Part shown: positions 16,079 to 62,700 of the stretch, one piece after another | Numbering within the stretch: position 1 is the first letter of the stretch | Layout: every line of letters starts with the position of its first letter | Assembly: GCA_964584025.1 (NCBI GenBank) | Contig: CAZOYE010000010.1 | Location: 14,515-78,514 of the forward strand | Direction: 5' to 3' | DNA: 64,000 nt | Source of the DNA: an uncultured Ignavibacteria bacterium | GTDB taxonomy: Bacteria > Zixibacteria > MSB-5A5 > CAIYYT01 | The notes under the pieces: model-generated | What the model was told of the DNA's origin: nothing | The model's input: the letters and a program-made list of their open reading frames with translations, nothing else | Databases searched by the model: none | Translations under genes and position numbers: made by a program

Positions 16079-16178
16079 TTCTAACTCACTTTGTCAAAGC
16101 GACTGTGGCAGAGCACTCGGCTGCTCCGCCTCCGTAACAGGCTGCGCAAAGCGATACCGCAGCCTGGTGCTACTCCCG

Positions 16179-29510: not shown

Positions 29511-29552
29511 ATTGTCCAACAACGCCAATCAACCCATAATATTGGGAGTCTC

Positions 29553-31355: not shown

Positions 31356-31387
31356 GCTGACAGAAATTCAATCTCCGAACTTTGCGA

Positions 31388-31417
31388 AGAGGAACGCCGG
31401 GCGTTCCTCTTTTTTAT
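31388..31417 (+). terminator. Rho-independent terminator after the reprolysin-like gene
   Basis: GAGGAACGCC gg GCGTTCCTC followed by TTTTTTAT. Confidence 0.6.
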
Positions 31418-31528
31418 CCCTCTGCCAAACCTGCGAGCGAACGCGTCAAAAAACAATACCTAAATCGATGTATATACTCTATATTAACTGACGATCGCAG
31501 TTGCAGACACGGACCCGGGGAGAATTCG

Positions 31529-34500
31529 ATGAACTCACGTTTCTATCTCAGCCTTTTGTTGGCCGGACTTGCGGCTCTCTATGCGTACACGCCGTCGGCG
31601 AGCGCCGATGATTGCGGCACGGAGCTGACTGCCGCCGACATACAGGCCATATCATCTCTGCTTGACGAGCAATCGCTGGCCCGCGAAACGCGCTCCAACG
31701 ACTTCTATGACCTGCCGATCGCCATGCACATCGTGCGGCAAAGCAATGGTACCGGCGGAATCAGCGCCGCAGAAGTCGAGGCGTCCATCGACAGCGCGAT
31801 CATTCTGTTTGCGCAGGTCAACGTCTCGATCTACGAAATTCAGCCGGTGAACTTCATCGACGAAGATTTCTTCTATTTTGATATGTCGAGCAGCACGCAG
31901 ATGGACAGTCTCAAGCGCTACGACAAGGTCGCCAATGCGGTGAATATCTACTGGGTGCCGAGCTCTTCCGGATTTGGCTATTGCGGTATTTCGTCGTTTC
32001 CTTCGTCCGGTGTTCAGGGGATCATCATGAACAATAATTGCGGCGGCCTGCTCTCGAAAAACTCGACATTGGTGCACGAAATCGGCCATTACTTCAACTT
32101 AATGCATACTCACGAGCCGGCCTTTGGCATCGAGTGTCCTAACGGCAGCAACTGCACAACAGCGGGAGACCTGGTTTGCGATACGCCGGCCGATCCCAAC
32201 GTCAGCGGACACGTGGGCTTGCCGCCGGATTGCCTCTACGACAACTTCGCTTCTCCGCCGGGCGGCTGCGACGCAACACCCTATAGCCCGCCGGTCGACA
32301 ATATCATGTCCTACTCACGCCAATCATGCCGCGACATCTTGACTCCCGGACAGGTCGACCGTTTTCGTTTCGCCGTCGAGAAGCTGCGGCCGGAGCTGGC
32401 AACCTTGATTAACGGCGTCCTGATCACTCCCCTCGCGGTCAATCCGCTGATTGTGCCACTGGCAACAAAGCAGGACTCGGCGATTGTGCTTCAGAATTTC
32501 GGAGGCAGTGCCGTGACCTTCAACAGCGCGACCTCGGTCTTCGGGAATGTGGTCGTGACCGGAGGAACCCCGGTGACCCTGATGCCGTCGGAAGTCGGCA
32601 ATGTAACCTTCGAGTACGATGCCCTGGCGCTCACGTCGAGCTGCGATCTCGGAGTCGTCACCGATACGATTGTCATCACGATTTCGGCTCCGACCGTGTG
32701 GGAAGTGCGTATTCCTGTTACCGTGAATATTGCTTATGCGATTCCCGCGCAGGCGCAAAACTCATTTCAATCGACCTGTTTGACCTTCACCGTGCCGAAT
32801 ACGCCCGCCCTCGGCGACCGCACTTCGGCTGCATTCTTGGATCCCATCAGCAACGTGCTTTACGACGGTTCATTGTTGCTGGGCCTTATCGACGGGTCAG
32901 ATACCACCGTCTACATGGACATGTTCTCGCAAAGCGATTATCTCGCGGCCGATGGGTTCGTGGCCGGCACCGACGAATACGGCCGCACGACCCAGACCTT
33001 GCGCTTCGCGACCAACGATGCGCGCTTGAGCGGCGAAGTCATATATCATCTTGGCGGCGATATCGGGACCCCGGATAGCTGCCAGGTCATTGAAATCGAA
33101 TATCGCGTGCGCAATGATTGCGATACAAACTTGCAGGTCGTTGCCGGGATCGCCGCGGATTTTGATATCGACGGCTCAGGGTCGAACAACGCCCTTGTCG
33201 ATGGCGTCAACCACATTGTCTATGTCGATCAAGGCGCTCATGCGGCGGGTTTTGCGAATTTGATGCCTTGCCCGGAACAGGGTTCCTTGCGGACGATCTC
33301 CAACGCAGTCTCTATTTACCCCACCAACGGCCTCATTGACGGCGCGACGTACCTGGAGATGGTTTCTCCGAACAGCGGCGATATATTTGCGCAAGACGTC
33401 TCCGTGCTGCTCTCATTCGGCAAATTCCATCTTCACACCGGTACGGAGCGGACATTGCGCGCGGCATTGATGTCTTCCCAGTTCACGGGAGTCGGTCTGC
33501 AAGCTGCCGCCAATGGATTGCGTACTCTGAGCCCACCCGGGCCGTGCTTCCTCGAAGTTCCTCAAATCTACGGTACGATTCAAGAGGCAATCACGGCAGC
33601 GGTTGATGCTGACACGATCGTTCTCGCACCCGGGACCTACACCGGGTTCGGCAACAAAGACCTTGATTTCCAGGGCAAAAAGATCGTCGTGCGCGGCGCC
33701 GGGCCAACATCAACGTTTATCGACTGCGCCGGTTCGGCGGGAAGTCCGAGTCGTGGATTGCGCTTTGACGACGCCGCTGAGAACAGCAGTGTTCTGATTG
33801 AAGGGTTGGCGATCAAGAACGGATATGCTCCTGCTGACGGCCCGAGTTTTCGTCCGAACGGGGGCGCGGTTATTGTCATGAACGGCGCTTCGCCGACTTT
33901 CCGCAACTGCCGCTTCGAGTTGAACTTTGGCAAGCGCAATGGCGGTGCGATTTCCGTCGAGGTCGGGTCAAGTGTGGCACTTGAAAACTGTCTCTTCGTT
34001 GACAACTCCGTCTTCGACCCCCTGGACAACGAGTATTGGGGAGGCGCAGTCTATCTTGGGTCATCAACTTCCGCGGTGATCACCGCTTGCGAATTCATCA
34101 ACAACTCGGCATTTGCCGGCGGCGCACTCGCGTTAGACAATAGCGCTGTAACGATTGTTTCCGGTTGTCGGTTCATCGCCAACAGCGCCCAGTTTGCCGG
34201 CGTCGTGATTTGCGACGCTGCGGCAGCCGACTTCAACGGCTGCGCCTTCGCCGATAACTTCGCGGAGATTGCAGCGGGGGTTGGCTACTCGTTTAACGAG
34301 ACATTGTCGTCAAACTTCACGAATTGTACATTCGTCGGCAACTTCCTGTCGACCCCAAATCCAAATTCAGGAAGCGTCTATTATGCCCAGGATGCGGCTG
34401 TCGATTTCAGCCGCAGCATTTTCTATGACAACAGCGGCGATGAAGTGCTGGTGTGCAGTGGCACTGGCGCTTTCACAATCGACTGCTCCAACATTTTTGG

Positions 34501-35269
34501 CAATGCATCCGGTGATTGGACCGGCTGCGTCGCCAGTCAGTCGAGCAGCAACGGCAATTTCTCGGCTGATCCGATCTTTTGTGACCTGCCAGGGGATGAT
34601 TTCCGGGTCAGAAGTTCTTCGCCCTGCGCGCCGGCAAACAACTCATGCGCCGTTCTGGTCGGCGCTGGATCGCCCGCCTGCGGCAATACGCCAGCAGGAA
34701 GCGACGTAGCTGTCGCTGTGACCGACAGCGTGACGGTGACATTCAACACCGTGACCGACGACGGTGAAACTTCGGTGACGATCTCCGAAAGTGGACCGAA
34801 TCCGCCGGCCGGATTTGAAATTGTGCCATCGACGCCGGAGGCCTACTACGAGATTTCGACGACAGCACCGTACTCTGGCGTGATCGAGATCTGCATCTAC
34901 TACGATCCGGCACAGGTTACCCCCGGTAACGAGGCTGACTTAAAGCTCTTCCACTACGATGGATCAAACTGGTCCGATATCACCAGTACCATTGATCAAG
35001 GCGCCAATGTGATATGCGGCGAAACGACGTCGCTGTCGCCGTTTATCGTCGCGCGGCCGTCGTACATTTGCGGCGACGCCGACGGCACGGCGATTGTAAC
35101 GATCTCTGATGCAGTGTACCTGATCGGCTACATTTTTGGCGGCGGCCCGGCTCCTTCCCCACTGGCGAGCGGCGACGTCGATTGCAGCGGCATCGTGACG
35201 ATTTCGGATGTAGTCTACTTGATCAACTACATCTTCGGCGGCGGCCCGGCACCGTGCGCGGGGTGTTGA
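31529..35269 (+). CDS. Secreted M43 (pappalysin/ulilysin)-like metzincin fused to right-handed beta-helix repeats and Cys-capped double dockerin-like CTD
   Basis: Signal peptide MNSRFYLSLLLAGLAALYA. VHEIGHYFNLMHTHE plus CDTPADP. Repeated NxxAxxGGA(I/L)xxxxS beta-helix-type units. CTD ...[13 protein letters not shown]. Start moved to ATG 31529 because the terminator at 31388 lies inside the longer ORF. Confidence 0.7.
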   Translation: MNSRFYLSLLLAGLAALYAYTPSASADDCGTELTAADIQAISSLLDEQSLARETRSNDFYDLPIAMHIVRQSNGTGGISAAEVEASIDSAIILFAQVNVSIYEIQPVNFIDEDFFYFDMSSSTQMDSLKRYDKVANAVNIYWVPSSSGFGYCGISSFPSSGVQGIIMNNNCGGLLSKNSTLVHEIGHYFNLMHTHEPAFGIECPNGSNCTTAGDLVCDTPADPNVSGHVGLPPDCLYDNFASPPGGCDATPYSPPVDNIMSYSRQSCRDILTPGQVDRFRFAVEKLRPELATLINGVLITPLAVNPLIVPLATKQDSAIVLQNFGGSAVTFNSATSVFGNVVVTGGTPVTLMPSEVGNVTFEYDALALTSSCDLGVVTDTIVITISAPTVWEVRIPVTVNIAYAIPAQAQNSFQSTCLTFTVPNTPALGDRTSAAFLDPISNVLYDGSLLLGLIDGSDTTVYMDMFSQSDYLAADGFVAGTDEYGRTTQTLRFATNDARLSGEVIYHLGGDIGTPDSCQVIEIEYRVRNDCDTNLQVVAGIAADFDIDGSGSNNALVDGVNHIVYVDQGAHAAGFANLMPCPEQGSLRTISNAVSIYPTNGLIDGATYLEMVSPNSGDIFAQDVSVLLSFGKFHLHTGTERTLRAALMSSQFTGVGLQAAANGLRTLSPPGPCFLEVPQIYGTIQEAITAAVDADTIVLAPGTYTGFGNKDLDFQGKKIVVRGAGPTSTFIDCAGSAGSPSRGLRFDDAAENSSVLIEGLAIKNGYAPADGPSFRPNGGAVIVMNGASPTFRNCRFELNFGKRNGGAISVEVGSSVALENCLFVDNSVFDPLDNEYWGGAVYLGSSTSAVITACEFINNSAFAGGALALDNSAVTIVSGCRFIANSAQFAGVVICDAAAADFNGCAFADNFAEIAAGVGYSFNETLSSNFTNCTFVGNFLSTPNPNSGSVYYAQDAAVDFSRSIFYDNSGDEVLVCSGTGAFTIDCSNIFGNASGDWTGCVASQSSSNGNFSADPIFCDLPGDDFRVRSSSPCAPANNSCAVLVGAGSPACGNTPAGSDVAVAVTDSVTVTFNTVTDDGETSVTISESGPNPPAGFEIVPSTPEAYYEISTTAPYSGVIEICIYYDPAQVTPGNEADLKLFHYDGSNWSDITSTIDQGANVICGETTSLSPFIVARPSYICGDADGTAIVTISDAVYLIGYIFGGGPAPSPLASGDVDCSGIVTISDVVYLINYIFGGGPAPCAGC

Positions 35270-35296: not shown

Positions 35297-37396
35297 TTAG
35301 TTGTTTGACTCAGCGAACTCCACAAGAGTCTGGCGCAAAATCGCGTGGAGTTCGCTTCTCTGACTACTGGTCAGCCCATCGTCGTGCGGCGGCCAAATCA
35401 TCGCGATCTCCCCAAGAGCCTCGATTCGTCGTCCCGAGTTGTGTTCGAACTGCAGTGCCTGCAATGCGGCATCGAGTTCACCATATCGCGCGAGGGCCAT
35501 GGCACAGCCAGCCACTTCTTTATCGATAATCGGGTCTAAAGTCCCGATCAATCTTGAAGTGGATATTGCGAGGTACCTGTTGATCAACTGAATTGCGCGG
35601 TTCGCACAGCCACTGGCGTGTTGCGCGTCTGCTATTCTGATAATCATATCCGGCCTTATTCTCATCAAGACCGAATCGCGGGCATCAATTAGAGTAGACG
35701 TCGCTTTATCAATGTAGAACTTCACTCGCCCTTTCTTCAGCCAGATATTGCTCGGATTTCCAAGCGATAGCCAATAGTCCAGTTGCTGGGGGATCTCCAA
35801 TTCCTTGCATTTCTGATCAGCTGCTACGAGAACACGTTCAGCCTCGCTGGGATCAGGCCCGTCATACGGCTCTTGAAACCACTCCATGACAAAGCCGACG
35901 TAATCTTCTGGTGCTTTGACCAACTCAAGAATTGTAAGAAAGTCATCAGTGCTTGCGCCGATATCCTGCAATTCGGATGCAACCTTCGCCAGCATCCAGG
36001 AGCGCAACTGAGCATCGCGAATCCTTGCGATTACACGAAGCGCATGCCCCTTGTTGCTGGTGCGGATGCTGGTGTGTATGTATTGACCCAGTTCGTAGCT
36101 GAAGTCCTGTGTCGAAATCGAATCCTGCAACAGGTCTCTCAGTGGACCATAGGAGGGCACCAGTTCATACAAGTTGGTTGCGACAGGGTACCAAGCATCG
36201 CGAGCTCTTGCACTTGGGACTTTCGGTAGTTCCTTCAGATGCGACTCAATAAGTGCCCGCACGTCATCGATTCGCCCACAGATCAGGAATATTCTCGCCA
36301 GTTGCTCTGTAATCTCGAAATGAGTCCATGGATTTGTTACCGATTCAAACGACTCACGTCCTCTCGCGAGCAAGGTCCGGGTGAGAGCAGAGTCTCCGCT
36401 CGCGTGCGCAGCTGACACGACTGGAAGTGCCAGTCGACAGAAGTCATCGCGTTTTGCCCCCAAAGTTATCTCGGAAGCAACAGCGAGCGCTTCATGTGCC
36501 CCCTCCGAATCGCCCGCCAGGACGAACCGGTCGTACGCCGATAGCAACGCGCGAAGCGACCAAGTCGGGAATTGGTCAGCAGCGCGCCGAGCTTTCTCTA
36601 CGGCCTGACTCAGGTCAACATCGAGATACGCCTCCGCAAGTCTCAAGTCAGCCGATGCCTCCTCACTAGGTAAGGTTGCAAGACTTTCTAATTGCTCCAG
36701 GAGAGCCCGGCGTTCGTGAATTCCAAGCAATGGTGAGACCGCCTCGTAAATCAAGTCGAAACGACCCAAGTACCATTTGGGAAATCGTTGCTTGGCAACG
36801 ACAGTCGCGAGCGCGCTATCGGTTAACTCCCGCTGCAGTTGCTTGTCTCCAAGTCTTGCTGCAAGACTCGCTCCCCGTGAGAAGAGCAAGTACTTTCGGT
36901 CATTAAGCGATGGAGTACACAGTGCCTTCAAGCCACGATCAAGATCGCCATAGTCTAAACTAGTTTGAGTGAGGGCGAAAATCAGACTGTGCCGCGTCGA
37001 GATGTGCGTTCCCTCAACAAGTTCGTGCCTTTGTCCCGTTTTAGGGTCGATAGTCTCCACGCGAGGGAATGATTTTGCCAAATATAAGGCCGCACTAAAC
37101 AAGTCCCCTTCTGCCCCTGCACGCTCTCTAAACATCGGCGCCACCGAATCCATTATGGTCGTGGCACTCATCTCGCGCCCGTTGACCACAAAGCGACTAT
37201 CCGGAGCGAGACTGTGGAGTGCCGACAATGCGCGCTCCAGATATTCCCGAGCTTGAGCAAAGCTGGTGCCCTCTGCGACTACCGCACTGTCGAGTACCGC
37301 CTGGATTTTCGCGCTCGAATCAGCGATCAAGTCGCTGTTATAGAAAGCAAGGACGATGACAATCACCGACCTGAATATTGAATTGGACCCTTTCAT
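35297..37396 (-). CDS. Hypothetical secreted alpha-helical repeat protein (no recognisable catalytic motif)
   Basis: Start at the internal Met MKGSNSIFRSVIVIVLAFYNS (signal/TM). Leu/Ala-rich helical composition. Lower local GC. Confidence 0.4.
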   Translation of the reverse strand: MKGSNSIFRSVIVIVLAFYNSDLIADSSAKIQAVLDSAVVAEGTSFAQAREYLERALSALHSLAPDSRFVVNGREMSATTIMDSVAPMFRERAGAEGDLFSAALYLAKSFPRVETIDPKTGQRHELVEGTHISTRHSLIFALTQTSLDYGDLDRGLKALCTPSLNDRKYLLFSRGASLAARLGDKQLQRELTDSALATVVAKQRFPKWYLGRFDLIYEAVSPLLGIHERRALLEQLESLATLPSEEASADLRLAEAYLDVDLSQAVEKARRAADQFPTWSLRALLSAYDRFVLAGDSEGAHEALAVASEITLGAKRDDFCRLALPVVSAAHASGDSALTRTLLARGRESFESVTNPWTHFEITEQLARIFLICGRIDDVRALIESHLKELPKVPSARARDAWYPVATNLYELVPSYGPLRDLLQDSISTQDFSYELGQYIHTSIRTSNKGHALRVIARIRDAQLRSWMLAKVASELQDIGASTDDFLTILELVKAPEDYVGFVMEWFQEPYDGPDPSEAERVLVAADQKCKELEIPQQLDYWLSLGNPSNIWLKKGRVKFYIDKATSTLIDARDSVLMRIRPDMIIRIADAQHASGCANRAIQLINRYLAISTSRLIGTLDPIIDKEVAGCAMALARYGELDAALQALQFEHNSGRRIEALGEIAMIWPPHDDGLTSSQRSELHAILRQTLVEFAESNN

Positions 37397-37421
37397 TCCT
37401 CTCCTCCCAAAGTAGTGCAGA

Positions 37422-38057
37422 TCACTTGTCTCTATGAGGATGACGAATCTGTGTCCGTAATGCAAAATCTTTGCGACCACTTGCACCTGCGTTTCGCTTC
37501 GCTATCATGGGAGCGGTTCTCGAGTCGAGCTCCCGGCTTCCGGTCAACCAAATTCGGCCAAAATCACTCTCCCCTCCTTGCCAAATGCTAACAATTCCGT
37601 CCCAAAACACGATTCTCAGGCTGCCATAAACCCCCGAGTCAAGTATGCCGATCTTGACTTCGGCGCTGCCCGTTTCATATTTCCACGCCTCCGGTGCGTT
37701 AATATCAGCGTCTTCAGTGCCGCCGAACTGGCCGGTATTGTCCAGCGCCCACTGCTGCGAGACTGAATCGTCATCTACAACCGCACCGTGCCAGTCGATG
37801 ATTCCGTTCTGTACCGCGCTCAGTACGTCTTCACTCGATTCTAACTCCTGCGCGGCCCGAGAGGCGCTTGCCGAATCTTCAAAGGTCAGGTTGTAAACAC
37901 CTTTCAGAGTCGGCTTCTCAACCCATATCCCGTCACGACCCTCAACCAAGACATAGTCCGAGTCATTGTCCTCAAAGGTTCGATTGATATAAACCGCGTG
38001 AAACGGTTCGAGAGCGTGCAATATCTCTTCAGATAGGATTGTTGATGTGTCACACAA
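37422..38057 (-). pseudogene. Truncated S8 subtilisin gene fragment (propeptide plus the first catalytic Asp region only)
   Basis: QQWALDNTGQFGGTEDADINAPEAWKYETGSAEVKIGILDSGV parallels QYALNNTGQSGGTVDADIDAPEAWDITTGG...VAIVDGG of the full subtilisin at 59707-63540, then diverges. No ATG start (the track's start is TTG), no signal peptide, and no His/Ser regions. Confidence 0.5.
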
Positions 38058-38306: not shown

Positions 38307-39215
38307 TTAGAAAGTAATCTGGTGTTTTTCGCTGCCATCCGGCCGCATCAACCAGAGATGACCATTGTCAGGATCGATCTCCGTAAAGACGATCCATTCT
38401 CCATCGGGCGACCATGCCGGATATCCACCTCCTTTCGATGTAAGTCTCCTGTATTCCTGCGTCCTACAGTCAAAATTCCAGATATTGATCAAACTCGTGC
38501 CCTCAATCCGGCTGATCAGTATCTCTTTACCATTGGGGCTTGCGGCAGCGTAGCGTTTGAGTTGATCCAAGAAAGGGAGCGAAATTGACTCCTGCGCCGA
38601 GATCGAGTAGAGTGAGAGTTCTCCCTGCCAAGTAACCGCGAAGCTGAGTACTGCGATAGAGTCGCAACTTCCGAGCCAATCCCCATACGAAGCGTACTGC
38701 AGAATCAAATTCTGTGCGCCAGATGCTGTGTTGAATTGGTGCATTCCGGCAGTCTGACCAACTCGGATAAAGTAAACGATCTTATCACCGCACGGCGACC
38801 AGCGCGGAAAATGGGCACTCTCGTCGGTTTCAATGTGCTCAACACTATCCTTGGCCAGATTGGTGATGTAGATTTGCCCACCTGTTTTCATCGCGATTCG
38901 AGTGCCATCAGGCGACCAGTCAAAGTCCGAGGCCCAGAAGTTTTCCCACAACAGGGAATCAGAACCTGACTCAACATCATGCAGGAACACCCCCCACACC
39001 CATTGCGTGTCTTTCTGATCAGAGTCATTGTTGAAACTTTTGAAGTAGATGATCTTCTTTCCATCCGGCGACCAGGCGGGAGAGATGTCGATCTCCGTTT
39101 GAGGAATCGGCGGCCAGAATCCATCCTTGTCGTTGTTTCCTTTGTCGCTGCAACCGACTAAGAGTGCCGCCGATAGGCACAGCATAGAAATGAATAGAAA
39201 TCGAATCACAATCAC
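38307..39215 (-). CDS. TolB-like PD40 beta-propeller lipoprotein
   Basis: Lipobox LLVGC. Repeated WSPDG motifs (AWSPDGKKIIYF, FDWSPDGTRIAM, PRWSPCGDKIVYF, AWSPDGEWIVF). Confidence 0.7.
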   Translation of the reverse strand: MIVIRFLFISMLCLSAALLVGCSDKGNNDKDGFWPPIPQTEIDISPAWSPDGKKIIYFKSFNNDSDQKDTQWVWGVFLHDVESGSDSLLWENFWASDFDWSPDGTRIAMKTGGQIYITNLAKDSVEHIETDESAHFPRWSPCGDKIVYFIRVGQTAGMHQFNTASGAQNLILQYASYGDWLGSCDSIAVLSFAVTWQGELSLYSISAQESISLPFLDQLKRYAAASPNGKEILISRIEGTSLINIWNFDCRTQEYRRLTSKGGGYPAWSPDGEWIVFTEIDPDNGHLWLMRPDGSEKHQITF

Positions 39216-41720: not shown

Positions 41721-43075
41721 TACGACTCGCCCCGGAGCCTTTCGCGCAGCAGCCGCATCTCCTCGGTATCGCGGCCATATTCCTCTGCTTCACCCAGGTG
41801 ATGCTGAGCGCGTTTGTGCTCCCCTTTTTCGTAGAAGATCTCCGCCGCGACGATGTGTGCCGGTTGGTGTGCCGGATTCAAGCGGATGGCCGTATCGATG
41901 GCTTCCGCCGCTTTGTCGAGACGATTAAGAATCAGGTTGTATTCCGCGATAACGATCAACGGTTCCGGATAGGACGGATCAAGTTCCTGAGCGCGGCGAA
42001 CCAACTGCAGCAAGCGCTCGTCGTCACCCACATCCGTCGACTTGATGCGTTCGAGGTGGGCGTAGGCCAAGCCAATTAGGTATCCCGGATCGTAGGGATT
42101 CTTGCGGATCGCCTTCACGAACTCGGCCTCGGCATCATCAATCCGGTCCTGCATGAGATAGACCCAGGCGAGCGCGAAGTTGACCTGCGAACTCTCCGGA
42201 TTCGAACGAAAAGCGCGTCGAATAAACTCTTCCGCCTTATCGTATTGCTGCATCTCCTTGAAGTTGTAGGCGATCCCCATCAGCATTTCGAAATCGACCG
42301 GGTTAAGATCAAGCGCCTCTTCAAACGCCTCGCGGGCGGCTTCGTGATTGCCCTTGCCCAGCAGGAATTCGGCGCGTTGCCGGCAATCGGACTCCAGTTC
42401 CAGCGCCAGATGGAGAAGCGAGTGAACCTCGCGCTTATCGTAATCGAGCTCGAGCGCGCGCAGAAACGCCTCGCGAGCCGCTGCGGCGCGACCCGATTCC
42501 AGCAGGCACTGCCCTAACCCGAGAAGCGCCTTGTGGCTGTATTCGCGGCTTTCGGTGAGATCGCACTCGACGGCTTGCTCGAAATAGTGCACCGCCTCGT
42601 CACGATAAGACATCGCCGCAAGCGTCAGCCCCATTTCTGTAAGATACTTCGACGAATTGGGAAATTCAGAGAGTGAACTTTCCAGCTCCGTCCGGCTCGA
42701 CTTCAGCCGCCCGGACCGTTGATAAACCAGCGAGCGGTGGTAATGAGCTTCGGAAGCCTCCGGGAATTCCCAGCGCACGAATGACTGGGTAGGATTGTGG
42801 CGGATGAAATTATTGTACTCCTCGGCGGAATTGAATTTCATCGCCTGGCTCACGCGTCGGCGGAGGATCCGCGTAATCGAGCTGTTGCGGGAAATGATGC
42901 GATCGGTTTCGCGCAAGACCGTATCGTAGTCGCCGGCCTCCAGGGCCAGGTTAATCGAATCAAAAGGCGCCTGGGGGTCGCCGGCACGCCGGATTCGACG
43001 GACAACTGCCTGCACGAGGTTCCGGAGTCGTTCGATCATACGGGAGCAATGTACGGCACTTTGCCGGATCGTCAA
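41717..43075 (-). CDS. TPR repeat protein
   Basis: Multiple 34-aa TPR-like units (AEAEFVKAIRKNPYDPGYLIGLAYAHL and others). 4-nt overlap with the nuclease gene. Confidence 0.6.
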   Translation of the reverse strand: MTIRQSAVHCSRMIERLRNLVQAVVRRIRRAGDPQAPFDSINLALEAGDYDTVLRETDRIISRNSSITRILRRRVSQAMKFNSAEEYNNFIRHNPTQSFVRWEFPEASEAHYHRSLVYQRSGRLKSSRTELESSLSEFPNSSKYLTEMGLTLAAMSYRDEAVHYFEQAVECDLTESREYSHKALLGLGQCLLESGRAAAAREAFLRALELDYDKREVHSLLHLALELESDCRQRAEFLLGKGNHEAAREAFEEALDLNPVDFEMLMGIAYNFKEMQQYDKAEEFIRRAFRSNPESSQVNFALAWVYLMQDRIDDAEAEFVKAIRKNPYDPGYLIGLAYAHLERIKSTDVGDDERLLQLVRRAQELDPSYPEPLIVIAEYNLILNRLDKAAEAIDTAIRLNPAHQPAHIVAAEIFYEKGEHKRAQHHLGEAEEYGRDTEEMRLLRERLRGESY

Positions 43076-43085
43076 GGCTAAAAGT

Positions 43086-43108
43086 TGATAGTATTATTGA
43101 TACTAATC
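43086..43108. promoter_or_regulatory. Palindromic motif copy 1 (AGTATTATTGATACT)
   Basis: Inverted half-sites AGTAT...ATACT. Lies 10 bp upstream of the TPR gene start. Confidence 0.3.
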
Positions 43109-43265: not shown

Positions 43266-43280
43266 AGTATTAGTGATACT
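43266..43280. promoter_or_regulatory. Palindromic motif copy 2 (AGTATTAGTGATACT)
   Basis: Same 7-1-7 palindrome, 180 bp from copy 1. Confidence 0.3.
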
Positions 43281-43464: not shown

Positions 43465-43479
43465 AGTATTAATGATACT
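43465..43479. promoter_or_regulatory. Palindromic motif copy 3 (AGTATTAATGATACT)
   Basis: Same palindrome, 199 bp from copy 2. Confidence 0.3.
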
Positions 43480-43752
43480 ATATGCTCATTTAGGGCGTGT
43501 CTTCGCGATGCCATTGCGAAGAGGCTTTCGGTGCCGGGCCTTTCGGCCAAACACCCTTCAAATCCGACTATTCAGTTGCGCTCACTCTATAAGACTGAAG
43601 ATTGGGTCAGAAAAGCCGGAACTGGCTGGCCATGCGAGGCAGACACCACAGCCCGTAGCCGTGAATTGGGAGAAACTTAAGCCGGCTCCCTCCGGCCAGC
43701 CGGCGGCTCGCTTGACCGGCAGCTGCTGGGCCTGAGAAAACCAAAAATTTTC

Positions 43753-43780
43753 TTGACAATTTCTTGTCCGACTGTACATT
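43753..43780 (+). promoter_or_regulatory. Candidate promoter TTGACA-16-TACATT far upstream of the giant gene
   Basis: Direct sequence match. Would yield a ~600-nt leader. Confidence 0.25.
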
Positions 43781-44374
43781 GTTGCCGGTTGGTTGAACGT
43801 TTTGATGTACCTACCGTACATTACTCTCAGCACAAACAGCACGTTTTAGTTAACGAATTAGTTAACAGCACAAGCCTCTCACACTAGGCACTGTCATTTC
43901 GATGCGATTTTTGTTACACAAGATCGTGCTCGTGGTGAACTGCGTCCTCCTATTCTCTTTATTCACCAAATCCTCATTCGCTTGACTTGTCGCAACTACT
44001 AACTGATTGAAGCAAGACGCAGTCTTGAGGAGGTGTGATCGCTTCGGGCGGTTCACAGTCGATAAAGCTATCGAGACGAAAATTACTGTGTACGACCTTA
44101 CCCGGGGAAACTAATGCTACGTTCGGAAGTACCGAAACTATTAGCAGAGGTAACCCCAATCTCCAAGATTAGGAATCCTTGAGACAAGTAGTTGGCCTGC
44201 TGACCCACAACCCTAGACAAGTTACGGGTCGCCGCCAGCTCCAAGGTCCCTGATCGGCTGTCGCAGGCTACATGATCTGCTGCAACGACAGGGTACTTAG
44301 GTTGGTGTGCCGCAGCTTTGAGCTGCAAGGCCGGACTACAAACGTATTTTCCTAACTGTGTAAGGAGGAAGTAC

Positions 44375-47300
44375 ATGTTCAAAAGACTTTTGCTGGTCGT
44401 GTTGACTTTGGCCTTGATTCTGGGCCTGAGCAGCATGGCTTTTGCAACCAAGGATCCGAGTTCCTTTAAAGTTGGCACGTATACGATCGGCACTCCTGGA
44501 GCCGGCCGCGCGCTACATCAGCCGCAGCCGATCCATCCGCCGACGACTCCGTATTCAGGCGGCATTGCTCAACCTTTGCCGAATCCGCAGCAGCCGGCCG
44601 CTCGTTCGAGCGCGGCCACCTGCGACTGGCAGGCCCAGTATGGCACCATTAGCTTCTATTTTAATGGTTCCGCTGGATTCGGCCAGGCAGTGCGTTGGTC
44701 ACAGACCAATTCTGCTGAAGTCTGTTCCCTGAAGACGATTAGTCTGTTGATTTACGGCGCCGCGAGCACCTTTGGTGCTTCGGCGGGCGTAACCTCCTAC
44801 GTATGGGCCGACGATGGAACCGGACTTCCTGGTGCCGTCATCTACTCAGTGAACGTTCCGCATGCGAGCATTCTGTTCTATCCGTCATACACGGATGTCG
44901 ATGTCTCGTCTGCGAATCTTGTTTTCTCCGGTGTGACTGAATACCACACTGGTTTCATTCCGAACAGCATTGCCGACACCTACGCCTGCTTGATGGATAA
45001 CGGCGACGGCGGACCGAACGCGTCCACCAGTCTCTACATCCAGGGCACGGGTTGGTTCGGTAACGGCGGCGTGTTCGTGAGCGGTGACATCAACTGGGCG
45101 CAAGAGATCTACACCTGCTGCTACGAAGCTGGTGACCCGGGTATCTGCGATACTCAGTTGTGGCATTGCGGTGTTGTGTATCGCTGGCCCGGTTTCTGGG
45201 CTGCCGAGCGCTTCACTGCCGCTGGCGAATGCACGCTGAAGACGGTGCGTCTGAGCATCTCTTCGTTCGGTACTGCCGCTTATGTCGGTGGTATTGACGC
45301 TCTCATTTACGCCGACAACGGCGGCCTTCCGGGAACGATTCTCGGCAGCGTCCACGTCCCGGATGCATCGATTACGTTTGCTCCTGGCATGACGTCAGTC
45401 GACGTTTCGGGTCTGGGCCTCGTGTTCAATAACGAGGACTACCACGTCGGTTATCGCCCGGTCAATCCGGCTGAAGATTATCAGCCGATTGGCGACGACG
45501 GCGAAATTCCGGCGACCTGTCCCGAGGGCGGCGTCCTTCGTGGTTCCGCGTCCCTTGATTTGGGCGCCACCTGGGATTACATGGCCAACATCGACATCGG
45601 TTACGATGATAACTGGGTGTTTGAAGTTGACTATTGCTGCGCGGCTGTCGTGAACCTTTGCGACAACCTCAACTATGCTGGTTCTCCGTTCTATTACTGG
45701 ACTGAGCCGGACGTTTATGGCGACCAGTTCCGTAACATGCGGTTTACCAACGCCGAATACTGCACGCTGAAGACCGTCAACCTGAACTTCTATGCTCCGG
45801 GTTCAGTCGGTGCTCCGGGCGCGCAAATCTACATTTGGAATTCGGACGGCCAGTTCCCGACTTCCGTGATCACGACCTACAACGTGAACCCGGTTGTTGA
45901 TTACTTCCCGACCGCGACCAGTGTCGATGTTTCGGCTGCGAACATTCTTCTGGCGGGTGACTACCACGTCGGATATTCCACGATTCTTAACGCCCCGACC
46001 GATGTGTTGGCGATTCTTTCGGACGACGGAACCACAGGTTCGCTTCGTTCGAGCGAGTTCTACTCCGGTCAGTGGTGGTTAATGGCGAACAGCTGGGGTG
46101 CGGATGTCAACTTCTTGATTGACGTCGACCGCTGCTGCACGCCTCCGGGTTATTGCCCGATCTTCTGCTCGCCGACCGATCAGTGGCCGACCTTCTCGCA
46201 CGACTATGCTCGTACGGGCCAGTCGCAACTGACTCTGGGCGACCTTTGCGGTATCGTGAAGGTTTGGCAGTATGACGGTCCCGCGGCTGTCAACGGCCTC
46301 AACTTCACCCAGCCCTTGATCTACAATGACCTGGTTTATGCTGCTTACAACGATCGCGTTGTCGCTGTCGACCTGCAGACCGGCGCGCTGGTGTGGGATA
46401 CCTTTACCCTCGGGTATGGTCTCATCATCACCAACTCGCTGCGTTGCCAGATGACGATCGACCCGACCGGCTTGTACTTTGGTACTGGTGCTCTCCGCGG
46501 ATTCGCGAAAGCAGATCTGGCGACCGGTGCGAACATCTGGGCGCGCGGCGTTGGCGTTGCCAACCCGCTTCCGGGTACGCCGGGCCAGACTCGTTTCGCC
46601 GGTTCCGTGATCGTCGGCAACGAAGTGTACTTTGGTTGCGAAAACTCCCAGATCTACGCTCTCAATGCCACGACCGGTGCCGACCTGTACTCAGCCCAGC
46701 TTTACACCGATGCCGGCAACACCGTGAAGGGTTCGATCTACGGACCGGCCACGACCGACGGCAGCGATTTGTTCTTCGGGTTGACCGCCAACCTTCTGGG
46801 CGCGACCAACGGCCTTGGCGCCGTGATCTCGGTCAGCTACGGTGGTGCGTTTACCCAGAACTGGAAGCACATCAGCGCTTTCCAGGCTGTGCTGCATGAG
46901 AACTTTGCGGCAGGCACAACCTATCGTTGTGACAACCTGTTCGTTCACGCTTCGTTTGCCTTCGGCAACCAGGGCGACTATTCCGGTTACCGTCAGAACC
47001 TCGATCCGGCTACGGGTACCCCGATCTGGACTTCGACGTTCCTGATGGGCCAGAATATCTTCTGCCCGCCGGCTGCCGGCAACGAACTGGTGTTCTTCCC
47101 GAACATCAATAACGGCTTCGGCAGCCCGAACGCCGGAACCCGCGGCGTGCGTGCGGTCAACTTTGCGAACAGCACGGTTTGGCTCAATGCCGCTTCCGAT
47201 GCCGCGAACAACAACGTGTTCAACTCGCCGGCGGTCACCTGCGATCCGTACGTCATGTATGGTTCGTATGACCTGATCGGCTTTGACTACCACTGGGGTA

Positions 47301-49267
47301 TCTTCGATGCCAATACTGGTGCGAACCTGATCGATTACATCGTCAGCGGTAACATCATGGGCACGGCGATTGCCAGTGGCACCGATGGCAACAACTACAT
47401 CGTCACCGCGATCCGCAACGCCAACGACGCCCAATCGGGCCGTCTGCTTTGCTTCGCGAACGGTGGCCCGCGTCCGCGTCTGAATATCCCTGAACTCCTG
47501 GTCCAGTTCACCGGCACCAATACGTCGGAAGCTGCTCCGGTTCAGAGAACCGACAATGACGCCGTTGTCAACACCGGTTGCGCGACTCTTAACGTTACGG
47601 CCACGCTTGAAGCCGGCGCTCCGCCGACCGCTCGCGTCATCTCCGACATTCATCCGGCTCTGGCGAACAAGGCGGAAGCTTTGGTTGCCGACTTGACGGA
47701 TTACACGGTCGAATCGATGATGGGCCGCGTTGCTCAGTCGATCAACACCAAGGGCGCTTCGATGTTCGAAGTGACCTCGGATGGCGAGACGATTGAAAAG
47801 GCGATCACGGCTGTGAAGCCGGCGATGGCCAATTCCGAGAGACTGGCTCCCCCGACCTGGGTGAGTTGGATTCTGCCGCTTTCGGGTGGCGCTTCGGTCA
47901 ACTTCGCAGTTGCCGGTGGTGGAAGTCAGGACTTTACGTTTGAGTTCGACCGCAGTGGAATGAACTTCCTTGCCCCGAACTACTACTATGTGTACATCGA
48001 TTCGGATGATCCGGATTACTTCGTCGAACAGTCCCCGCAGCCGTCCCCGCAGGCGATCATCGAGTACCAGATTGCGTACGAGTATTGTGCAAAAGACACA
48101 AGCCGTATCGACTTTGGTGCCGCTGGTAGCGCTTGGGCGACGAACTACGGCGCTCTGGCCGACGGCAACGTCGCGTTCGAATTCTCGCTGGATTCGAGCT
48201 CTGACGGCGCCTACGCCTACGAAGGCACCATGTTCTTCATGACGTCGATGGACGACGCCGCCTGGAACGTGTTTGGTAGCTTTGATGCTCAGTATCTCTA
48301 CCCGTTCTATGTCGGCCCGTTTGTCAACGGTGATTGTGGTGGCTGCGATATCGGCGTGAATCTCCCTGTCGAATACACAACTAATGGCGGCGCGACCTAC
48401 GCCCCGACCGTTGGTGATATTTGCACCTTCGCGATGATCGACTCGTTGCAGGGTATCCTGAATGCTCACCAGGCTGGTCCGTCGATCGGCTTGTTGATCG
48501 ATACCCGCGAAATCGGCACCTACGGCGCTGACTTCGCTGACTTCGCGTTGTTCGTCGTCGATGTTAACGAACGTAACGGCAACCCGATCACGGGTATGTA
48601 TTACGGCTCCTTCATGGATTGGGACATTGGCACAGACGGTGGCGGCGGCGACGTTGCCAAGGGCTTTGTCTACCAGAACGACGGCGTAGAAGTGCGCGGC
48701 TTTATCGGCCTGCCGCTTGCCGGTTCGTACTGGCCGGACGGCACCAAGACCGACCCGATGTACAATGCTCATATCCTTGAGAACTCGCTCGTTGTCTATC
48801 CGACCGCTCCGTGCTCCGACTGCTTACCGGATTCTCTGTATGCATTCGTGGACGGCGTGGCCGAAGGCGCTCTGGTTATCATGCCAGACGGCACCGGCCC
48901 GGATAAGTCGACGATTGCTACCTTCGGCAAGGCAAACATTGCCGGCGGCGGCACGCATAGCTACGGCTTCGCCATCTTCGGTCATGCCAACTCGGCTGAC
49001 CCGAACGGCGACACCGAAGCCATGAGCAAGTTCATCAACAAGTACGCCGGTTTCGCTCGCGGTGACGTGAACGACGACGACTTGATTGATCTCCGCGACC
49101 TGGTCAAGCTGAGCAACTACGTTGGCTCAGGCGGCCCTGGTCCGGCTCCGTTCAAGCACCTTGGCGACGTGAACAACGACGGCGTTGTTGACGCTGCTGA
49201 CTGCGCTTACCTGGCGGCTTACTACTTCACCGGTGGTGCCCCGCCGCAGAGCGCGTTCGTGTTCTAA
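44375..49267 (+). CDS. Giant secreted protein (~1630 aa): Pro/Gln-rich linker, three Cys-rich tandem ~165-aa modules, PQQ-like beta-propeller, divergent double dockerin-like C-terminus
   Basis: RBS AAGGAGG 7 nt before ATG 44375. Signal peptide MFKRLLLVVLTLALILGLSSMAFA. Three repeats each containing ECTLKT...(W/Y)ADxGG(L)PG...VDVS.ANL...HVGY...CC. PQQ-type motifs AVDLQTGALVWD, ALNATTGADLYS, KADLATGANIWA. C-terminus GDVNDDDLIDLRDLVKLSNYVGSGGPGP...GDVNNDGVVDAADCAYLAAYYFTGGAPP. Confidence 0.75.
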   Translation: MFKRLLLVVLTLALILGLSSMAFATKDPSSFKVGTYTIGTPGAGRALHQPQPIHPPTTPYSGGIAQPLPNPQQPAARSSAATCDWQAQYGTISFYFNGSAGFGQAVRWSQTNSAEVCSLKTISLLIYGAASTFGASAGVTSYVWADDGTGLPGAVIYSVNVPHASILFYPSYTDVDVSSANLVFSGVTEYHTGFIPNSIADTYACLMDNGDGGPNASTSLYIQGTGWFGNGGVFVSGDINWAQEIYTCCYEAGDPGICDTQLWHCGVVYRWPGFWAAERFTAAGECTLKTVRLSISSFGTAAYVGGIDALIYADNGGLPGTILGSVHVPDASITFAPGMTSVDVSGLGLVFNNEDYHVGYRPVNPAEDYQPIGDDGEIPATCPEGGVLRGSASLDLGATWDYMANIDIGYDDNWVFEVDYCCAAVVNLCDNLNYAGSPFYYWTEPDVYGDQFRNMRFTNAEYCTLKTVNLNFYAPGSVGAPGAQIYIWNSDGQFPTSVITTYNVNPVVDYFPTATSVDVSAANILLAGDYHVGYSTILNAPTDVLAILSDDGTTGSLRSSEFYSGQWWLMANSWGADVNFLIDVDRCCTPPGYCPIFCSPTDQWPTFSHDYARTGQSQLTLGDLCGIVKVWQYDGPAAVNGLNFTQPLIYNDLVYAAYNDRVVAVDLQTGALVWDTFTLGYGLIITNSLRCQMTIDPTGLYFGTGALRGFAKADLATGANIWARGVGVANPLPGTPGQTRFAGSVIVGNEVYFGCENSQIYALNATTGADLYSAQLYTDAGNTVKGSIYGPATTDGSDLFFGLTANLLGATNGLGAVISVSYGGAFTQNWKHISAFQAVLHENFAAGTTYRCDNLFVHASFAFGNQGDYSGYRQNLDPATGTPIWTSTFLMGQNIFCPPAAGNELVFFPNINNGFGSPNAGTRGVRAVNFANSTVWLNAASDAANNNVFNSPAVTCDPYVMYGSYDLIGFDYHWGIFDANTGANLIDYIVSGNIMGTAIASGTDGNNYIVTAIRNANDAQSGRLLCFANGGPRPRLNIPELLVQFTGTNTSEAAPVQRTDNDAVVNTGCATLNVTATLEAGAPPTARVISDIHPALANKAEALVADLTDYTVESMMGRVAQSINTKGASMFEVTSDGETIEKAITAVKPAMANSERLAPPTWVSWILPLSGGASVNFAVAGGGSQDFTFEFDRSGMNFLAPNYYYVYIDSDDPDYFVEQSPQPSPQAIIEYQIAYEYCAKDTSRIDFGAAGSAWATNYGALADGNVAFEFSLDSSSDGAYAYEGTMFFMTSMDDAAWNVFGSFDAQYLYPFYVGPFVNGDCGGCDIGVNLPVEYTTNGGATYAPTVGDICTFAMIDSLQGILNAHQAGPSIGLLIDTREIGTYGADFADFALFVVDVNERNGNPITGMYYGSFMDWDIGTDGGGGDVAKGFVYQNDGVEVRGFIGLPLAGSYWPDGTKTDPMYNAHILENSLVVYPTAPCSDCLPDSLYAFVDGVAEGALVIMPDGTGPDKSTIATFGKANIAGGGTHSYGFAIFGHANSADPNGDTEAMSKFINKYAGFARGDVNDDDLIDLRDLVKLSNYVGSGGPGPAPFKHLGDVNNDGVVDAADCAYLAAYYFTGGAPPQSAFVF

Positions 49268-49295
49268 TCTGACAGATATCTGTTAGGATAGATCG

Positions 49296-49329
49296 CCGGG
49301 GTCTCGGAAACGAGACCCCGGTTTTTTTT
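49296..49329 (+). terminator. Rho-independent terminator after the giant gene
   Basis: CCGGGGTCTCG gaaa CGAGACCCCGG followed by TTTTTTTT. Confidence 0.7.
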
Positions 49330-49410
49330 CGCCCTGATTGCCGCTTGCCGTAAAGCTGTTGGCGAATCTGGAACTGCCGATTCATATTAGGTGTTGAAGA
49401 AAGAGACACT

Positions 49411-59706: not shown

Positions 59707-62700
59707 CTACGGACAGGCCGCGCAAGGCACGCTGCCGCCCGAGAAGATGTAGCCGATCAGGTACACCGCATCCGAGATGTTCACCAGCGCATCGCAGTTC
59801 GAATCGCCCGCTTCCAGCGGATTCGGCGCCGGACCACCAGAGAAGATATAGGAGATCAGGTACACTGCGTCTGAGATATTCACGATCTCATCCTCGTTGC
59901 AGTCGCCGCACATGTAGAATGGCCCCGGAGGCAACACGTTCAGCGTCGCCGGCAGAATCAGCGGATTGTTCTGCGGCAACGGATCGTTCGACGTGATCTT
60001 CACGTTCGCCTGATAGGTTCCCGTATCCAAATCGGTAGAGACAAACTTCAAGCTCAGCGTGTCCGCTTCTCCCGGCGCCACCGTCCCCGACAGCGGCTCG
60101 ACATACAGCCACTGTTTCGGCTTGGCAAACTCGATCGCCAGGTTCGGATGGATGTAGCTCGTGTTCAGCGACACCTGCAAGCCGTCGGTGCCCCCCAGGT
60201 TCTCCGTCCCGATCGTGTTGCTCGTCAGGTCAAAACCCGCCCCCATGCTCTGGTACTGCAGCTTGATCCCGCCGTCCGGCGACAAGATCATCTGCGCCGT
60301 GATCACATCCCCCGGATTCACCCCCGACTCATATTCGGGATAATTGATCCAGGAAATCACTAAAGCGCCGCCCACGTTCTGATACAGCACCTTCCCCCCC
60401 GGATTGTCCGCATCGTCCGGGTTCAAGTCGGTCCAGCACCAGTAAATCGCGTTGTTCGGCGTCGCCGCCGCCGGAATCGCGGCGTTAAACCGGCTGCCGT
60501 AGTTGTCCGTCGGCCCAAAGCCGATATACCCGTTCGACGCCATGTAAAACTGCGTGTAATTGCCGTCGTAGTACGGGAAGGTGAAACCGATCGGATACGG
60601 CCCGGAGAAGTTGTCGTCATTGAGCGCGCCGATAATATCGGTGCCGGTCGCCGAGATGTCGATCCAGTTGTAGGTCGGGCCGCCCGGATCATCCGAGTCG
60701 ATCCAGATGTAACCAAACGTGTCGGGACCACCCGCATCGTAGATCACGTCCGGACCCCGCGGCGCCTTGTCGCGCTGATCCTTCGGCAACTCGATCGCCG
60801 GCAGCTCGCTCTCACCGTGCGCCGTCTGCACCCGGTCCTGAGCTGCCAGCTCCGCAAAGCGCGCTTCGCTCTTGGTCAGCAGCGGCTGCACCACCACCGA
60901 GTAACTCAGACCGCCCAGACCCGAGTTGTCGATTACCAGTTCATCGTAGGTCGAATCGTCTTCGTGCAGGTTCTCGACGAAGCTGCCCGGGTTGACCGCG
61001 ATCGCCGGACCAAAGTCGATATTGATGTTGTCGACGAACCAGTCATCCAACGCGCCCGCCGTCGCCACCGTGCGGAAGCGGATGCGGAACGCCGAGTGAT
61101 AACCGTTGCTCGGCACGCCGGTCGAGAAGTACGAATAGGCCGTCATATCCGCGCTCGAACCGAGATGGCGCGTCAGTTCTGCCCAGGCGCCGGCATCGGT
61201 GTAGTACTCGACGATCAGATCGTCGCCCGCTTCGGGGCTGTCGCCGCCGCCCTTCTTCTCGTAGTAGTAGCCGATGTTCACCCCGGAGGCGACATTCATA
61301 TTGATCGCCTGCGACATCAGCGTATCGGCCCCCGTCGGATTGCCGTTTAAGCGCACGCTGTTGGGTTCCGACGGTTCGGCGATACCCACCCCGTCGATCG
61401 TCACGTTGGTCCATTGCACCCACAGGCTCGGGTCAACCGTCGTCGTCACGAAGTTGTCGACAAACGGCAGTTCCACCGGTTGTCCCGCCGAGGTCGTGCG
61501 CAGCGACGAACTCTGCGACACCAGCGCATCGGCCTGCGAAGTCGCCGTCACCGTAGCAGTATCAACTTGCCCGTAGAAACTCGCCGGGATAATCACCCGC
61601 GCCTTAAAGTCGAATGTAGCATTCGGCGTCAGGTTCGGCGTTGCCGTGATCTGCGACGACTGCGTCTCATCCCACAACGTCGTCGCCCAGTCCGCGCCAA
61701 ACAGCGACAGATTGTAAGCGTCGTCAAACAAACCGTCGTTCGTCACGGTCAGATCATGCCACACCGTGTCATCTACCGCCCCGGAGCCGAGGGAGATGTC
61801 CGGCGAAAGTAGCACTGCATAGTCGATAACGCTGAACGAGTAGACTTCGGTCGTATCACCCTTGCCGTTGATGGCGTGGGCTTCCATGTAATATGAGATA
61901 TCCGTGCCGGGTCCCTGCGCCGGAATGTATCCGACGTACTCGTTTGGATTGCCGGTCGCAACCAGAGTATCGAGGTAATTTGTTGCCGAAATCGTGTAAT
62001 GCAGAAGCAGCGAATCCGCAATCAGCGCGGCATCGCCAACGATGTTGGCCACGACAGGATAAGGATTCACTGTCTCTTTGGTATCCGGCAAACCTTCGTG
62101 CGAGATAGCAACACCGCAAGGATAGGACTGCACCAGCAACAAGCTGTTGTACACATTGAGTCGTCCACCGGTGACCGTTATGCCGGCCAGCGACGGCTTA
62201 GGATCGGTGCCGTCGAGCAGGTAATCGCGCATGATCAGCGCCAGCGCCCCCGGATTCTGCTTGTAGGCATTTATCATCGTCGGACAGGCTTCCGACCACA
62301 ACAGGGCGATCGCGCCGCAAACGTGCGGCGTCGCCATCGAGGTGCCGGTCAGCGTGGAATAACTCGAGCCCGGAACCGTCGAAAGCACATCGGTGCCCGG
62401 CGCGCCAAGGTCGATCGTCGTAGCACCATAGGCGGCACCGCTGTTCTTCGTATCGGTGCGTGTGGTATTGGTCACCGCAATCATGTAAGGGCTCGGGCAA
62501 GCTGTCGGGATATCGCCCTGAGCGTCAATGTCGATATTGAGATTTGCGGTCGCGCCGGCGTTAAGAACACCGACCGAACCGAGCGAATCATACATCGCGC
62601 ACCAGATCGGGAAATTTGCCGGTTGGCCGAAGTCGACGCCGAACGAGGCATTGGTGGCCACGACAAACGCCCCTTTCAGTCCGTTGGTCTGGTTGTACAG

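Follow-up and report, generated by a model that had tools for sequence, protein, structure and literature searches.

In a 64,000-nucleotide (nt) stretch of contig CAZOYE010000010.1 (assembly GCA_964584025.1, positions 14,515 to 78,514, labelled as an uncultured Ignavibacteria bacterium and called the window here), we analyzed the gene at 44375-49267 on the plus strand. It encodes a giant protein with a signal peptide, three tandem Cys-framed repeats, a beta-propeller, a beta-rich body and a C-terminal dockerin (Table 1). The anatomy of this protein, the fold of its repeats, the homology of its tail to dockerins, the conservation and synteny of its gene and the covariation in its leader RNA point to a secreted, non-catalytic and probably abundant surface adhesin that would be tethered by its dockerin, a passenger of a dockerin system and not its scaffold; we put the chance that this reading is right at about even. 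A sequence-only reading of the same DNA had described a secreted giant with three modules, a propeller and a dockerin tail, all of which stood, and had proposed that the repeats could be cohesin-like receptors and the protein a scaffoldin, which the lectin-like fold of the repeats does not support. The candidate novelty is a dockerin-bearing surface binding protein built on an undescribed domain family, whose gene carries what may be a new structured leader.

The open reading frame (ORF), signal peptide and Pro/Gln-rich linker of a 1630-amino-acid (aa) secreted protein are all present as first described. The three tandem repeats were confirmed at about 170 aa each (the earlier estimate was ~165 aa), with boundaries a few codons off the earlier ones and with every landmark that had been listed for them: C(T/S)LKT, (W/Y)AD.G.GLPG, (S/D)VDVS, YH(V/T)G(Y/F), a Cys near the start and a terminal CC. 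They are 31-38% identical pairwise (BLASTP E=4e-20 for repeats 1 and 3 and E=1e-15 for repeats 2 and 3). When repeat 3 was modelled with AlphaFold2 from an alignment of 42 repeats, we found a jelly-roll sandwich with a mean predicted local distance difference test score (pLDDT) of 95 and a predicted template modelling score of 0.90. The closest solved folds are the lectin-like domain of Cwp84 (top in Foldseek, E 5e-5) and phage baseplate proteins, and PHR domains also matched. Cwp84 (PDB 4ci7/4d59), the S-layer-processing cysteine protease of Clostridioides difficile, is like the repeats in fold at 10-12% sequence identity, with no sequence-level match; in the giant protein, by comparison, the domain is triplicated, framed by Cys and CC, and has no protease attached. 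Cwp84 is anchored by CWB2 repeats, not by a dockerin. Searches of PDB sequences with the repeat profile returned only chance-level matches to pyruvate oxidase, and a match to DUF4082 in one repeat was weak (E 0.073). As modelled, the repeats are jelly rolls of the lectin or carbohydrate-binding-module type.

This fold bears on the proposal of a cellulosome-like protease complex with the giant protein as its primary scaffoldin, in which the repeats would be cohesin-like or cohesin-analogous receptors and its own dockerin would be the anchor. The sequence-only reading had suggested comparing one repeat with the cohesin fold, and the comparison gave the lectin-like jelly roll: no cohesin is among the listed matches in either fold list, and the cohesin-type nine-stranded sandwich is not the nearest structural neighbour. 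At a cut-off as loose as E<=1, Pfam Cohesin (PF00963) still matches 0 of the 42 repeats, and aligning the repeat profile with a CipA cohesin in hhalign gave a probability of 0.1% (the cohesin sequence was validated as PDB 1aoh_A at 296 bits). With the domain also present in proteins that carry a type IX secretion system (T9SS) tail, we found no support for the repeats as cohesin-like receptors. The scaffoldin proposal does have points in its favor, as the giant protein is non-catalytic and modular, jelly rolls can bind proteins (the phage baseplate and PHR matches), other proteins with the repeat domain often carry a dockerin, and the window has two dockerin subtypes, the canonical one of the giant protein and a variant on four neighbours; hierarchical cellulosomes use distinct dockerin types.

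The distribution of the repeat domain speaks against a receptor role. Searching 1.84 billion cluster representatives (clustered at 50% identity) with the repeat profile, we found 2250 clusters at E<=1e-3, one of them from Thermoplasmatota archaea. In many of these proteins the domain is a single copy at aa ~50-220, right behind the signal peptide. Among 45 other repeat-domain proteins, Dockerin_1 is present in 22 and Por_Secre_tail instead in 7, and the remaining regions are diverse (FG-GAP, Big_5, TSP_3, NosD/beta-helix, InhA-like MAM domain). Pairings with peptidases were seen as single examples, C10 with a T9SS tail (P0061) and C25 with a dockerin (P0093). No Pfam or NCBIfam model covers the domain, and no further copy turned up when the window ORFs were searched with the repeat profile (hmmsearch), so that within the window the domain is limited to the giant gene. 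Because it is found on all sorts of secreted proteins, with or without a dockerin, it behaves like a general accessory binding domain; we regard it as a candidate new and widespread domain family, common to bacterial and archaeal surface proteins, that merits a family definition. All members of the giant family have three copies, and repeats at the same position are 44-60% identical across species as compared to 31% across positions, which indicates an old triplication with specialized positions. In scaffoldins, by contrast, cohesin arrays are variable in copy number and their copies are homogenized.

The likeness to Clostridium thermocellum CipA is that of a large, secreted, non-catalytic and modular protein that has beta-sandwich repeats of ~150-170 aa in tandem and ends in a dockerin; the differences are that the giant protein lacks cohesin modules and that its repeats keep their fixed number and position-specific orthology. 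The giant protein, in which no catalytic family was detected, joins lectin- or carbohydrate-binding-like folds to a dockerin, as ordinary dockerin-bearing binding proteins also do. In the orthologous loci that we fetched, moreover, none of the window's dockerin proteases adjoins the giant gene in a conserved manner. Taken together, these data leave the scaffoldin proposal very little credence. A variant of it would make the repeats a new, non-cohesin class of dockerin receptor that gathers dockerin-tagged metallo- and serine proteases into a surface 'proteolysome', and single-copy homologues would then let dockerin proteins chain together; we hold this variant to be most improbable.

At the C-terminus, we found a double Ca-loop tail (GDVNDDDLIDLRDLVKL.../GDVNNDGVVDAADCAYLAAYY...) without the PCxxCP end that four neighbours bear, as the sequence-only reading had it. 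That reading also called the tail divergent, and this was wrong: the tail matches Pfam Dockerin_1 (PF00404, aa 1563-1616) at 35.2 bits, above the gathering score of 22.9, whereas the C-terminal domains of the neighbours reach 19.2-28.9 bits. Both 12-residue loops have the canonical DxNxDxxxDxxD form (DVNDDDLIDLRD+LVKLSNYV and DVNNDGVVDAAD+CAYLAAYY), with helices at model residues 546-557 and 580-591. Run against solved dockerins, the profile of the giant family matched 4dh2_B (E=3.6e-7), 2y3n_B (1e-6), 4fl4_A (3.2e-6) and 1ohz_B (2.8e-4). The dockerin region is among the best conserved parts of the protein, and many of its columns are invariant down to orthologues of 24-26% identity, which implies a conserved partner. 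The tail is thus like the type I cellulosomal dockerins (1ohz_B of Xyn10B, 2y3n_B, 4dh2_B and 4fl4_A) in its PF00404 match and its two loop-helix segments, but its host belongs to a Zixibacteria lineage and not to cellulolytic Firmicutes, the window contains no glycoside hydrolases, and an alignment of orthologues shows a family-invariant PF(K)HLGD motif in the linker.

The neighbouring proteases do bear C-terminal modules related to this tail, as had been claimed, and these are dockerin-like. In four neighbours the module consists of a duplicated GD.D....(I/V)(T/N)(I/V)SDAVYLI..IF(G/S)GG followed by a terminal PC(x)xC(P), and judged from their sequences, a single family comprises both this module and the tail of the giant protein, as distinct subtypes. 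The organism seems to use dockerin-type tails widely as a C-terminal tag, and all five dockerin-tailed proteins of the window look like passengers. A functional parallel can be drawn to CttA of Ruminococcus flavefaciens, in which carbohydrate-binding-type modules are combined with a C-terminal dockerin through which the protein, and with it the substrate, is held at the cell surface; the giant protein would resemble CttA in this arrangement, but it is much larger, has a body of propeller and immunoglobulin (Ig)/supersandwich domains, and shares homology with CttA in the dockerin only. Literature searches for Zixibacteria with dockerin and related terms returned nothing relevant.

Between the repeats and the dockerin, a beta-propeller of the PQQ type had been read from the sequence, and PF13360 (PQQ_2) bears it out at 37.9 bits, above its gathering score of 27.6. 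Its only relatives among PDB sequences are BamB chains. The NCBIfam BamB equivalog scores 33.5 bits against a cut-off of 423, which places the propeller in the fold family without making it BamB itself; here it forms part of a secreted protein of 1630 aa, which is not a lipoprotein of the BAM complex. These matches bear on whether the protein could be an extracellular enzyme, either a PQQ-dependent dehydrogenase or a hydrolase or lyase with its activity in the C-terminal beta-rich domain, with the repeats targeting the substrate. For an enzyme, one can cite the dehydrogenase propeller family PF01011, which matched weakly (E 0.0012), a C-terminal model that resembles the N-domains of glycoside hydrolase (GH) families GH15, GH65 and GH94, and the C25 and C10 peptidases that the repeat domain accompanies elsewhere. 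However, PF01011 stays below its gathering score (18.1 as compared to 26.7 bits) and the significant propeller matches are of the non-catalytic BamB type; the GH-like match comes from a low-confidence model and covers the non-catalytic supersandwich only; and there is no (alpha/alpha)6 or other catalytic domain, nor does an invariant His/Cys/Glu constellation stand out in the alignment. Across the 1630 aa, we detected no catalytic family in Pfam, NCBIfam, PDB-sequence and C-terminal-domain profile searches, the last of which matched only fragments of the giant family itself. We consider an enzyme very unlikely.

To return to the giant protein as a whole, among 5.8 billion proteins searched, we found 30 full-length or partial homologues, nearly all of 1600-1750 aa, and the few that are named come from Candidatus Zixiibacteriota. 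Among orthologues, identity falls from 98% to as low as 22-27%, and all of them have the three repeats first, then the propeller, the middle region and the dockerin. The synteny is kept as well, even at 24% identity, with an SNase-like gene upstream, usually together with a TPR gene, and usually an M50 protease and an RR-GAF-HD gene downstream. A 20-base leader motif, scanned against 185,579 species genomes, is present once per genome in twelve of them, in every case 5' of the giant gene. From this distribution, the giant gene reads as a signature of its lineage and not as a mobile or sporadic gene. Metagenome-assembled genomes that bear an orthologue include GCA_964617645.1, GCA_964537215.1, GCA_019038695.1 and GCA_964552775.1. 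Several genomes with an orthologue are labelled 'uncultured Ignavibacteria bacterium', and Zixibacteria or Zixiibacteriota is the label of others that share the gene and the leader; the Ignavibacteria labels look like misassignments at the level of the submitter.

The coding sequence (CDS) is framed by a sigma-70-type promoter and an intrinsic terminator, which together delimit a monocistronic unit. In 14 orthologous leaders, CTTGAC and TA.ATT of the promoter are invariant or nearly so, and TTGACA is also found in a distant clade whose proteins are 24-26% identical. A sigma-54 promoter (a sigma-54 activator gene is syntenic) was dropped, as the conserved hexamers fit TTGACA-16/17-TA.ATT. The long leader that had been noted before the gene is real and is conserved across orthologous loci. 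We aligned the leaders of 14 distinct orthologous loci and surveyed hairpins in 19 leaders from both clades. The alignment has 142 invariant columns, with the invariant blocks GGTTGGTTGAACGTT, CTTGTCG, AGGAGGTG, GGGCGGTTC, CCCTAGACAAG and AGGAGGAA. Leader identity to the window is 60-67%, as compared to 48-52% at third codon positions and 40-45% in intergenic DNA farther upstream; the CDS has the same overall identity of 60-67%, and an impression of stronger conservation in the leader was rejected.

The RNAalifold consensus of the leader comprises 73 pairs, with pairing in 94.8% of cells as compared to 32-40% when the partners are slid. We counted 17 compensatory pairs, as compared to 8.3+-1.8 on shuffling (0/500) and 5-8 on sliding, with the caveat that this alignment had also supplied the structure. 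The leader of the window folds at -186.9 kcal/mol, whereas shuffled sequences fold at -167.3+-6.4 kcal/mol (z=-3.05). The loop motif CCCU(A/G)GACA is enclosed by a helix of 5-8 bp in 19/19 leaders, five of them from the 24-26% clade, and the arms of this helix have 15 different sequences. The distant clade also keeps the UUUCCUU...AAGGAGGA pairing, the leader length of ~590 nt and the GACUCC motif (ACUCC in 2/5). Upstream, the block GUGUACGACC may be an alternative partner of the Shine-Dalgarno (SD) region; the helix between them is without covariation because its pairs hardly vary. The leader is probably a cis-acting RNA that stabilizes the mRNA and/or gates translation, with gating probable because the SD can pair either with a local anti-SD or with the distant conserved block. 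As a long leader ahead of what is probably a surface-protein gene, with a 5'-proximal hairpin, an anti-SD/SD helix and an alternative distal partner, it resembles the leaders of ompA and S-layer mRNAs, SD-sequestering thermometers and riboswitch expression platforms, which are stabilizing or translation-gating elements; it differs from them in being several times longer, conserved at the level of a phylum and provided with an invariant CCCUAGACA loop, and in having no Rfam match. At gathering thresholds, Rfam matched one tRNA in the whole window and nothing in the leader, and no match at E<=1 falls in 43650-44420. A second copy of the leader was not found in the window by nhmmer with the leader profile. 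A conserved upstream ORF starting from CATGATCTG was rejected, as its length and frame vary, it has 5 codons in locus L003 and it is missing in three loci. By eye only, we also saw a possible pairing of a leader loop (GACAAGU) with a leader block (ACUUGUC).

The same transcription unit enters into the question of whether the protein is an S-layer-like, self-assembling main structural coat protein, with modules that serve lattice contacts. One orthologue with fixed synteny is present in each of the twelve genomes matched, and the monocistronic gene lies between a strong promoter and a strong terminator, behind a long structured leader, a layout that several S-layer and ompA mRNAs share. Its codon bias is strong (third of 28 window genes, effective number of codons 40.1), and the protein is very acidic and poor in Lys and Arg (156 Asp+Glu as compared to 61 Lys+Arg). 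In addition, Cwp84, the nearest solved relative of the repeats, is S-layer-associated. On the other hand, Pfam and NCBIfam detected no S-layer family or SLH domain in the giant protein, and its 32 Cys and beads-on-a-string multi-domain build are atypical; both features are unusual in lattice proteins. We regard a coat protein as unlikely, while giving it some weight. Pfam also found no T9SS sorting domain (Por_Secre_tail/CHU_C) in the giant protein.

For the dockerin-tethered adhesin, these data suggest the following course of events. The multi-domain protein would be exported by Sec to the surface of a Zixibacteria-type bacterium, where the three lectin-like modules on the Pro/Gln linker could, judging from their fold, bind a glycan, another polymer or a particle. 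The propeller, the PapD/ASH-like Ig domain and the beta-rich domain would form the body, and the type I dockerin, as its family membership suggests, would tether the protein in a Ca2+-dependent manner to a partner at the cell surface. The gene would act as a self-contained unit of strong promoter, structured leader, CDS and strong terminator; the monocistronic layout, the strong signals, the codon bias and the acidity are consistent with high expression. Several points weigh against this reading. The ligand, the surface location and the abundance are inferred for organisms that are uncultured, and the codon bias, the acidity and the long leader are indirect hints of abundance. 'Lectin-like' is a fold-level label, and in phage baseplates and PHR domains, for example, similar jelly rolls mediate protein-protein contacts. 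The model is poor for the C-terminal 530 aa (mean pLDDT 59.8), which leaves room for a cryptic activity. The anti-SD/SD hairpin is weak (-7.9 kcal/mol, z=-1.4). Finally, cohesin PF00963 was not found in window ORFs of at least 200 aa, and it is also absent from the precomputed Pfam lists of the fetched orthologous loci.

Dockerins outside cellulosomes are common in genome data, where their function is unexplained, and with at least five secreted proteins in 64 kb that carry dockerin-type tails, Zixibacteria are suited to asking which partners such non-cellulosomal dockerins have. As for the leader, it may be a new large cis-acting RNA, and its core motifs outlast the protein sequence (orthologues 24% identical); if it gates the production of the main surface protein, it would give access to the surface biology of a phylum that is uncultured.

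Table 1. Features of the giant gene, its leader and protein, and of other genes in the window (nt positions in the window unless aa is stated).
Feature	Position	Strand	Details
Palindrome 1	43090-43104	.	AGTATTATTGATACT (AGTAT-N5-ATACT); operator-like; 15 nt from divergent TPR ORF
Palindrome 2	43266-43280	.	AGTATTAGTGATACT; overlaps minus-strand promoter-like site 43286-43259
Palindrome 3	43465-43479	.	AGTATTAATGATACT; same 15-bp type
Sigma-70-type promoter	43753-43780	+	TTGACA-16-TACATT; 10/12 match; conserved A-tract CAAAAAT upstream
Structured 5' leader	43787-44374	+	~590 nt; inferred transcription start
5' hairpin	43803-43823	+	UGAUGUAC-CUACC-GUACAUUA; 8 pairs, 100% paired, 3 compensatory; z=-3.87
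Conserved block	44088-44097	+	GUGUACGACC; nearly invariant; complementary to SD/start-codon region GGAAGUACAU; 96% paired
Hairpin with invariant loop	44201-44231	+	loop CCCUAGACAAG; motif CCCU(A/G)GACA; presents CCCUAGACA (44211-44219)
Anti-SD with SD	44347-44369	+	UUUUCCU with AGGAGGA; 44347-44353 pairs with 44363-44369
CDS	44375-49267	+	1630 aa; ATG inside ORF 44318-49267; AAGGAGGAAGTAC precedes ATG
Signal peptide	aa 1-24	+	N-terminus MFKRLLLVVLTLALILGLSSMAFA/TKDP; Sec type with AxA site, read from sequence
Pro/Gln-rich linker	aa ~25-82	+	after signal peptide
Repeat 1	44621-45139	+	aa 83-255; lectin-like jelly roll (predicted); profile score 172.7 bits
Repeat 2	45140-45649	+	aa 256-425; lectin-like jelly roll (predicted); profile score 176.4 bits
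Repeat 3	45650-46168	+	aa 426-598; lectin-like jelly roll (predicted); modelled copy, most conserved of the three
BamB/PQQ_2-type beta-propeller	46169-47455	+	aa 599-1027; PF13360 match from aa ~629
PapD/ASH-like Ig domain	47456-48079	+	aa 1028-1235; tentative; ~80-aa low-confidence insertion
Family-specific beta-rich domain	48080-49039	+	aa 1236-1555; tentative; possibly galactose-mutarotase-like supersandwich
Type I dockerin	49058-49234	+	aa 1562-1620; two Ca loops, DVNDDDLIDLRD and DVNNDGVVDAAD, helix after each
Intrinsic terminator	49295-49332	+	12-bp stem (49295-49322), 9 G-C pairs, then T run
Unknown secreted protein	27416-29443	+	second dockerin subtype; ends PCGPC
M12/M66-like protease	29490-31355	+	second dockerin subtype (66-aa C-terminal domain, 31152-31355); PC(x)xC(P) end
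M43-like protease	31382-35269	+	second dockerin subtype; ends PCAGC, without final P
S8 subtilase	59707-63540	-	second dockerin subtype; PC(x)xC(P) end
Secretin	3233-4504	-	type II secretion system (T2SS)/type IV pilus-like cluster
Prepilin-type N-methylation protein	7130-8356	-	T2SS/type IV pilus-like cluster
T2SS-F	9255-10475	-	T2SS/type IV pilus-like cluster
T2SS-E/MshEN ATPase	10465-12186	-	T2SS/type IV pilus-like cluster

Three 15-bp palindromes had been noted ahead of the giant gene, and they are real and conserved: the palindrome AGTATTAnTGATACT has 3 matches as compared to 0.09/0.00 expected by chance, and AGTAT-N5-ATACT is found upstream in six related loci (L005, L011, L012, L014, L017 and L018). 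However, they lie 270-660 nt upstream of the giant-gene promoter and nearer to the divergent TPR-SNase genes, where they overlap promoter-like sites. In the start region of the divergent TPR gene (43029-43080, minus strand) there is a promoter-like TTGACG-16-TACATT, which is a weak nhmmer match (E 0.013) to the promoter part of the leader profile; a promoter-like site at this position indicates that the annotated TTG start at 43075 is probably too far upstream.

Elsewhere in the window, three genes have a weaker codon bias, with a G+C content at third codon positions of 0.56-0.59 as compared to ~0.70-0.79 elsewhere, namely 35297-37486 and 38307-39215 on the minus strand and 14651-16877 on the plus strand, and a recent acquisition of these genes is possible; no Pfam family matched the 729-aa product of 35297-37486. 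The T2SS/type IV pilus-like cluster at 3233-12186 on the minus strand is a possible export route for folded dockerin proteins, as far as its gene content suggests, and in locus L003 similar T2SS F and E genes lie 2-6 kb downstream of the giant-gene orthologue. The window also contains a tandem pair of genes with DUF3857 and transglutaminase-core domains (22821-24776 and 24798-26786, minus strand), and the same pair is found in locus L002 (183-4154), a few kb from the orthologue of the giant gene.

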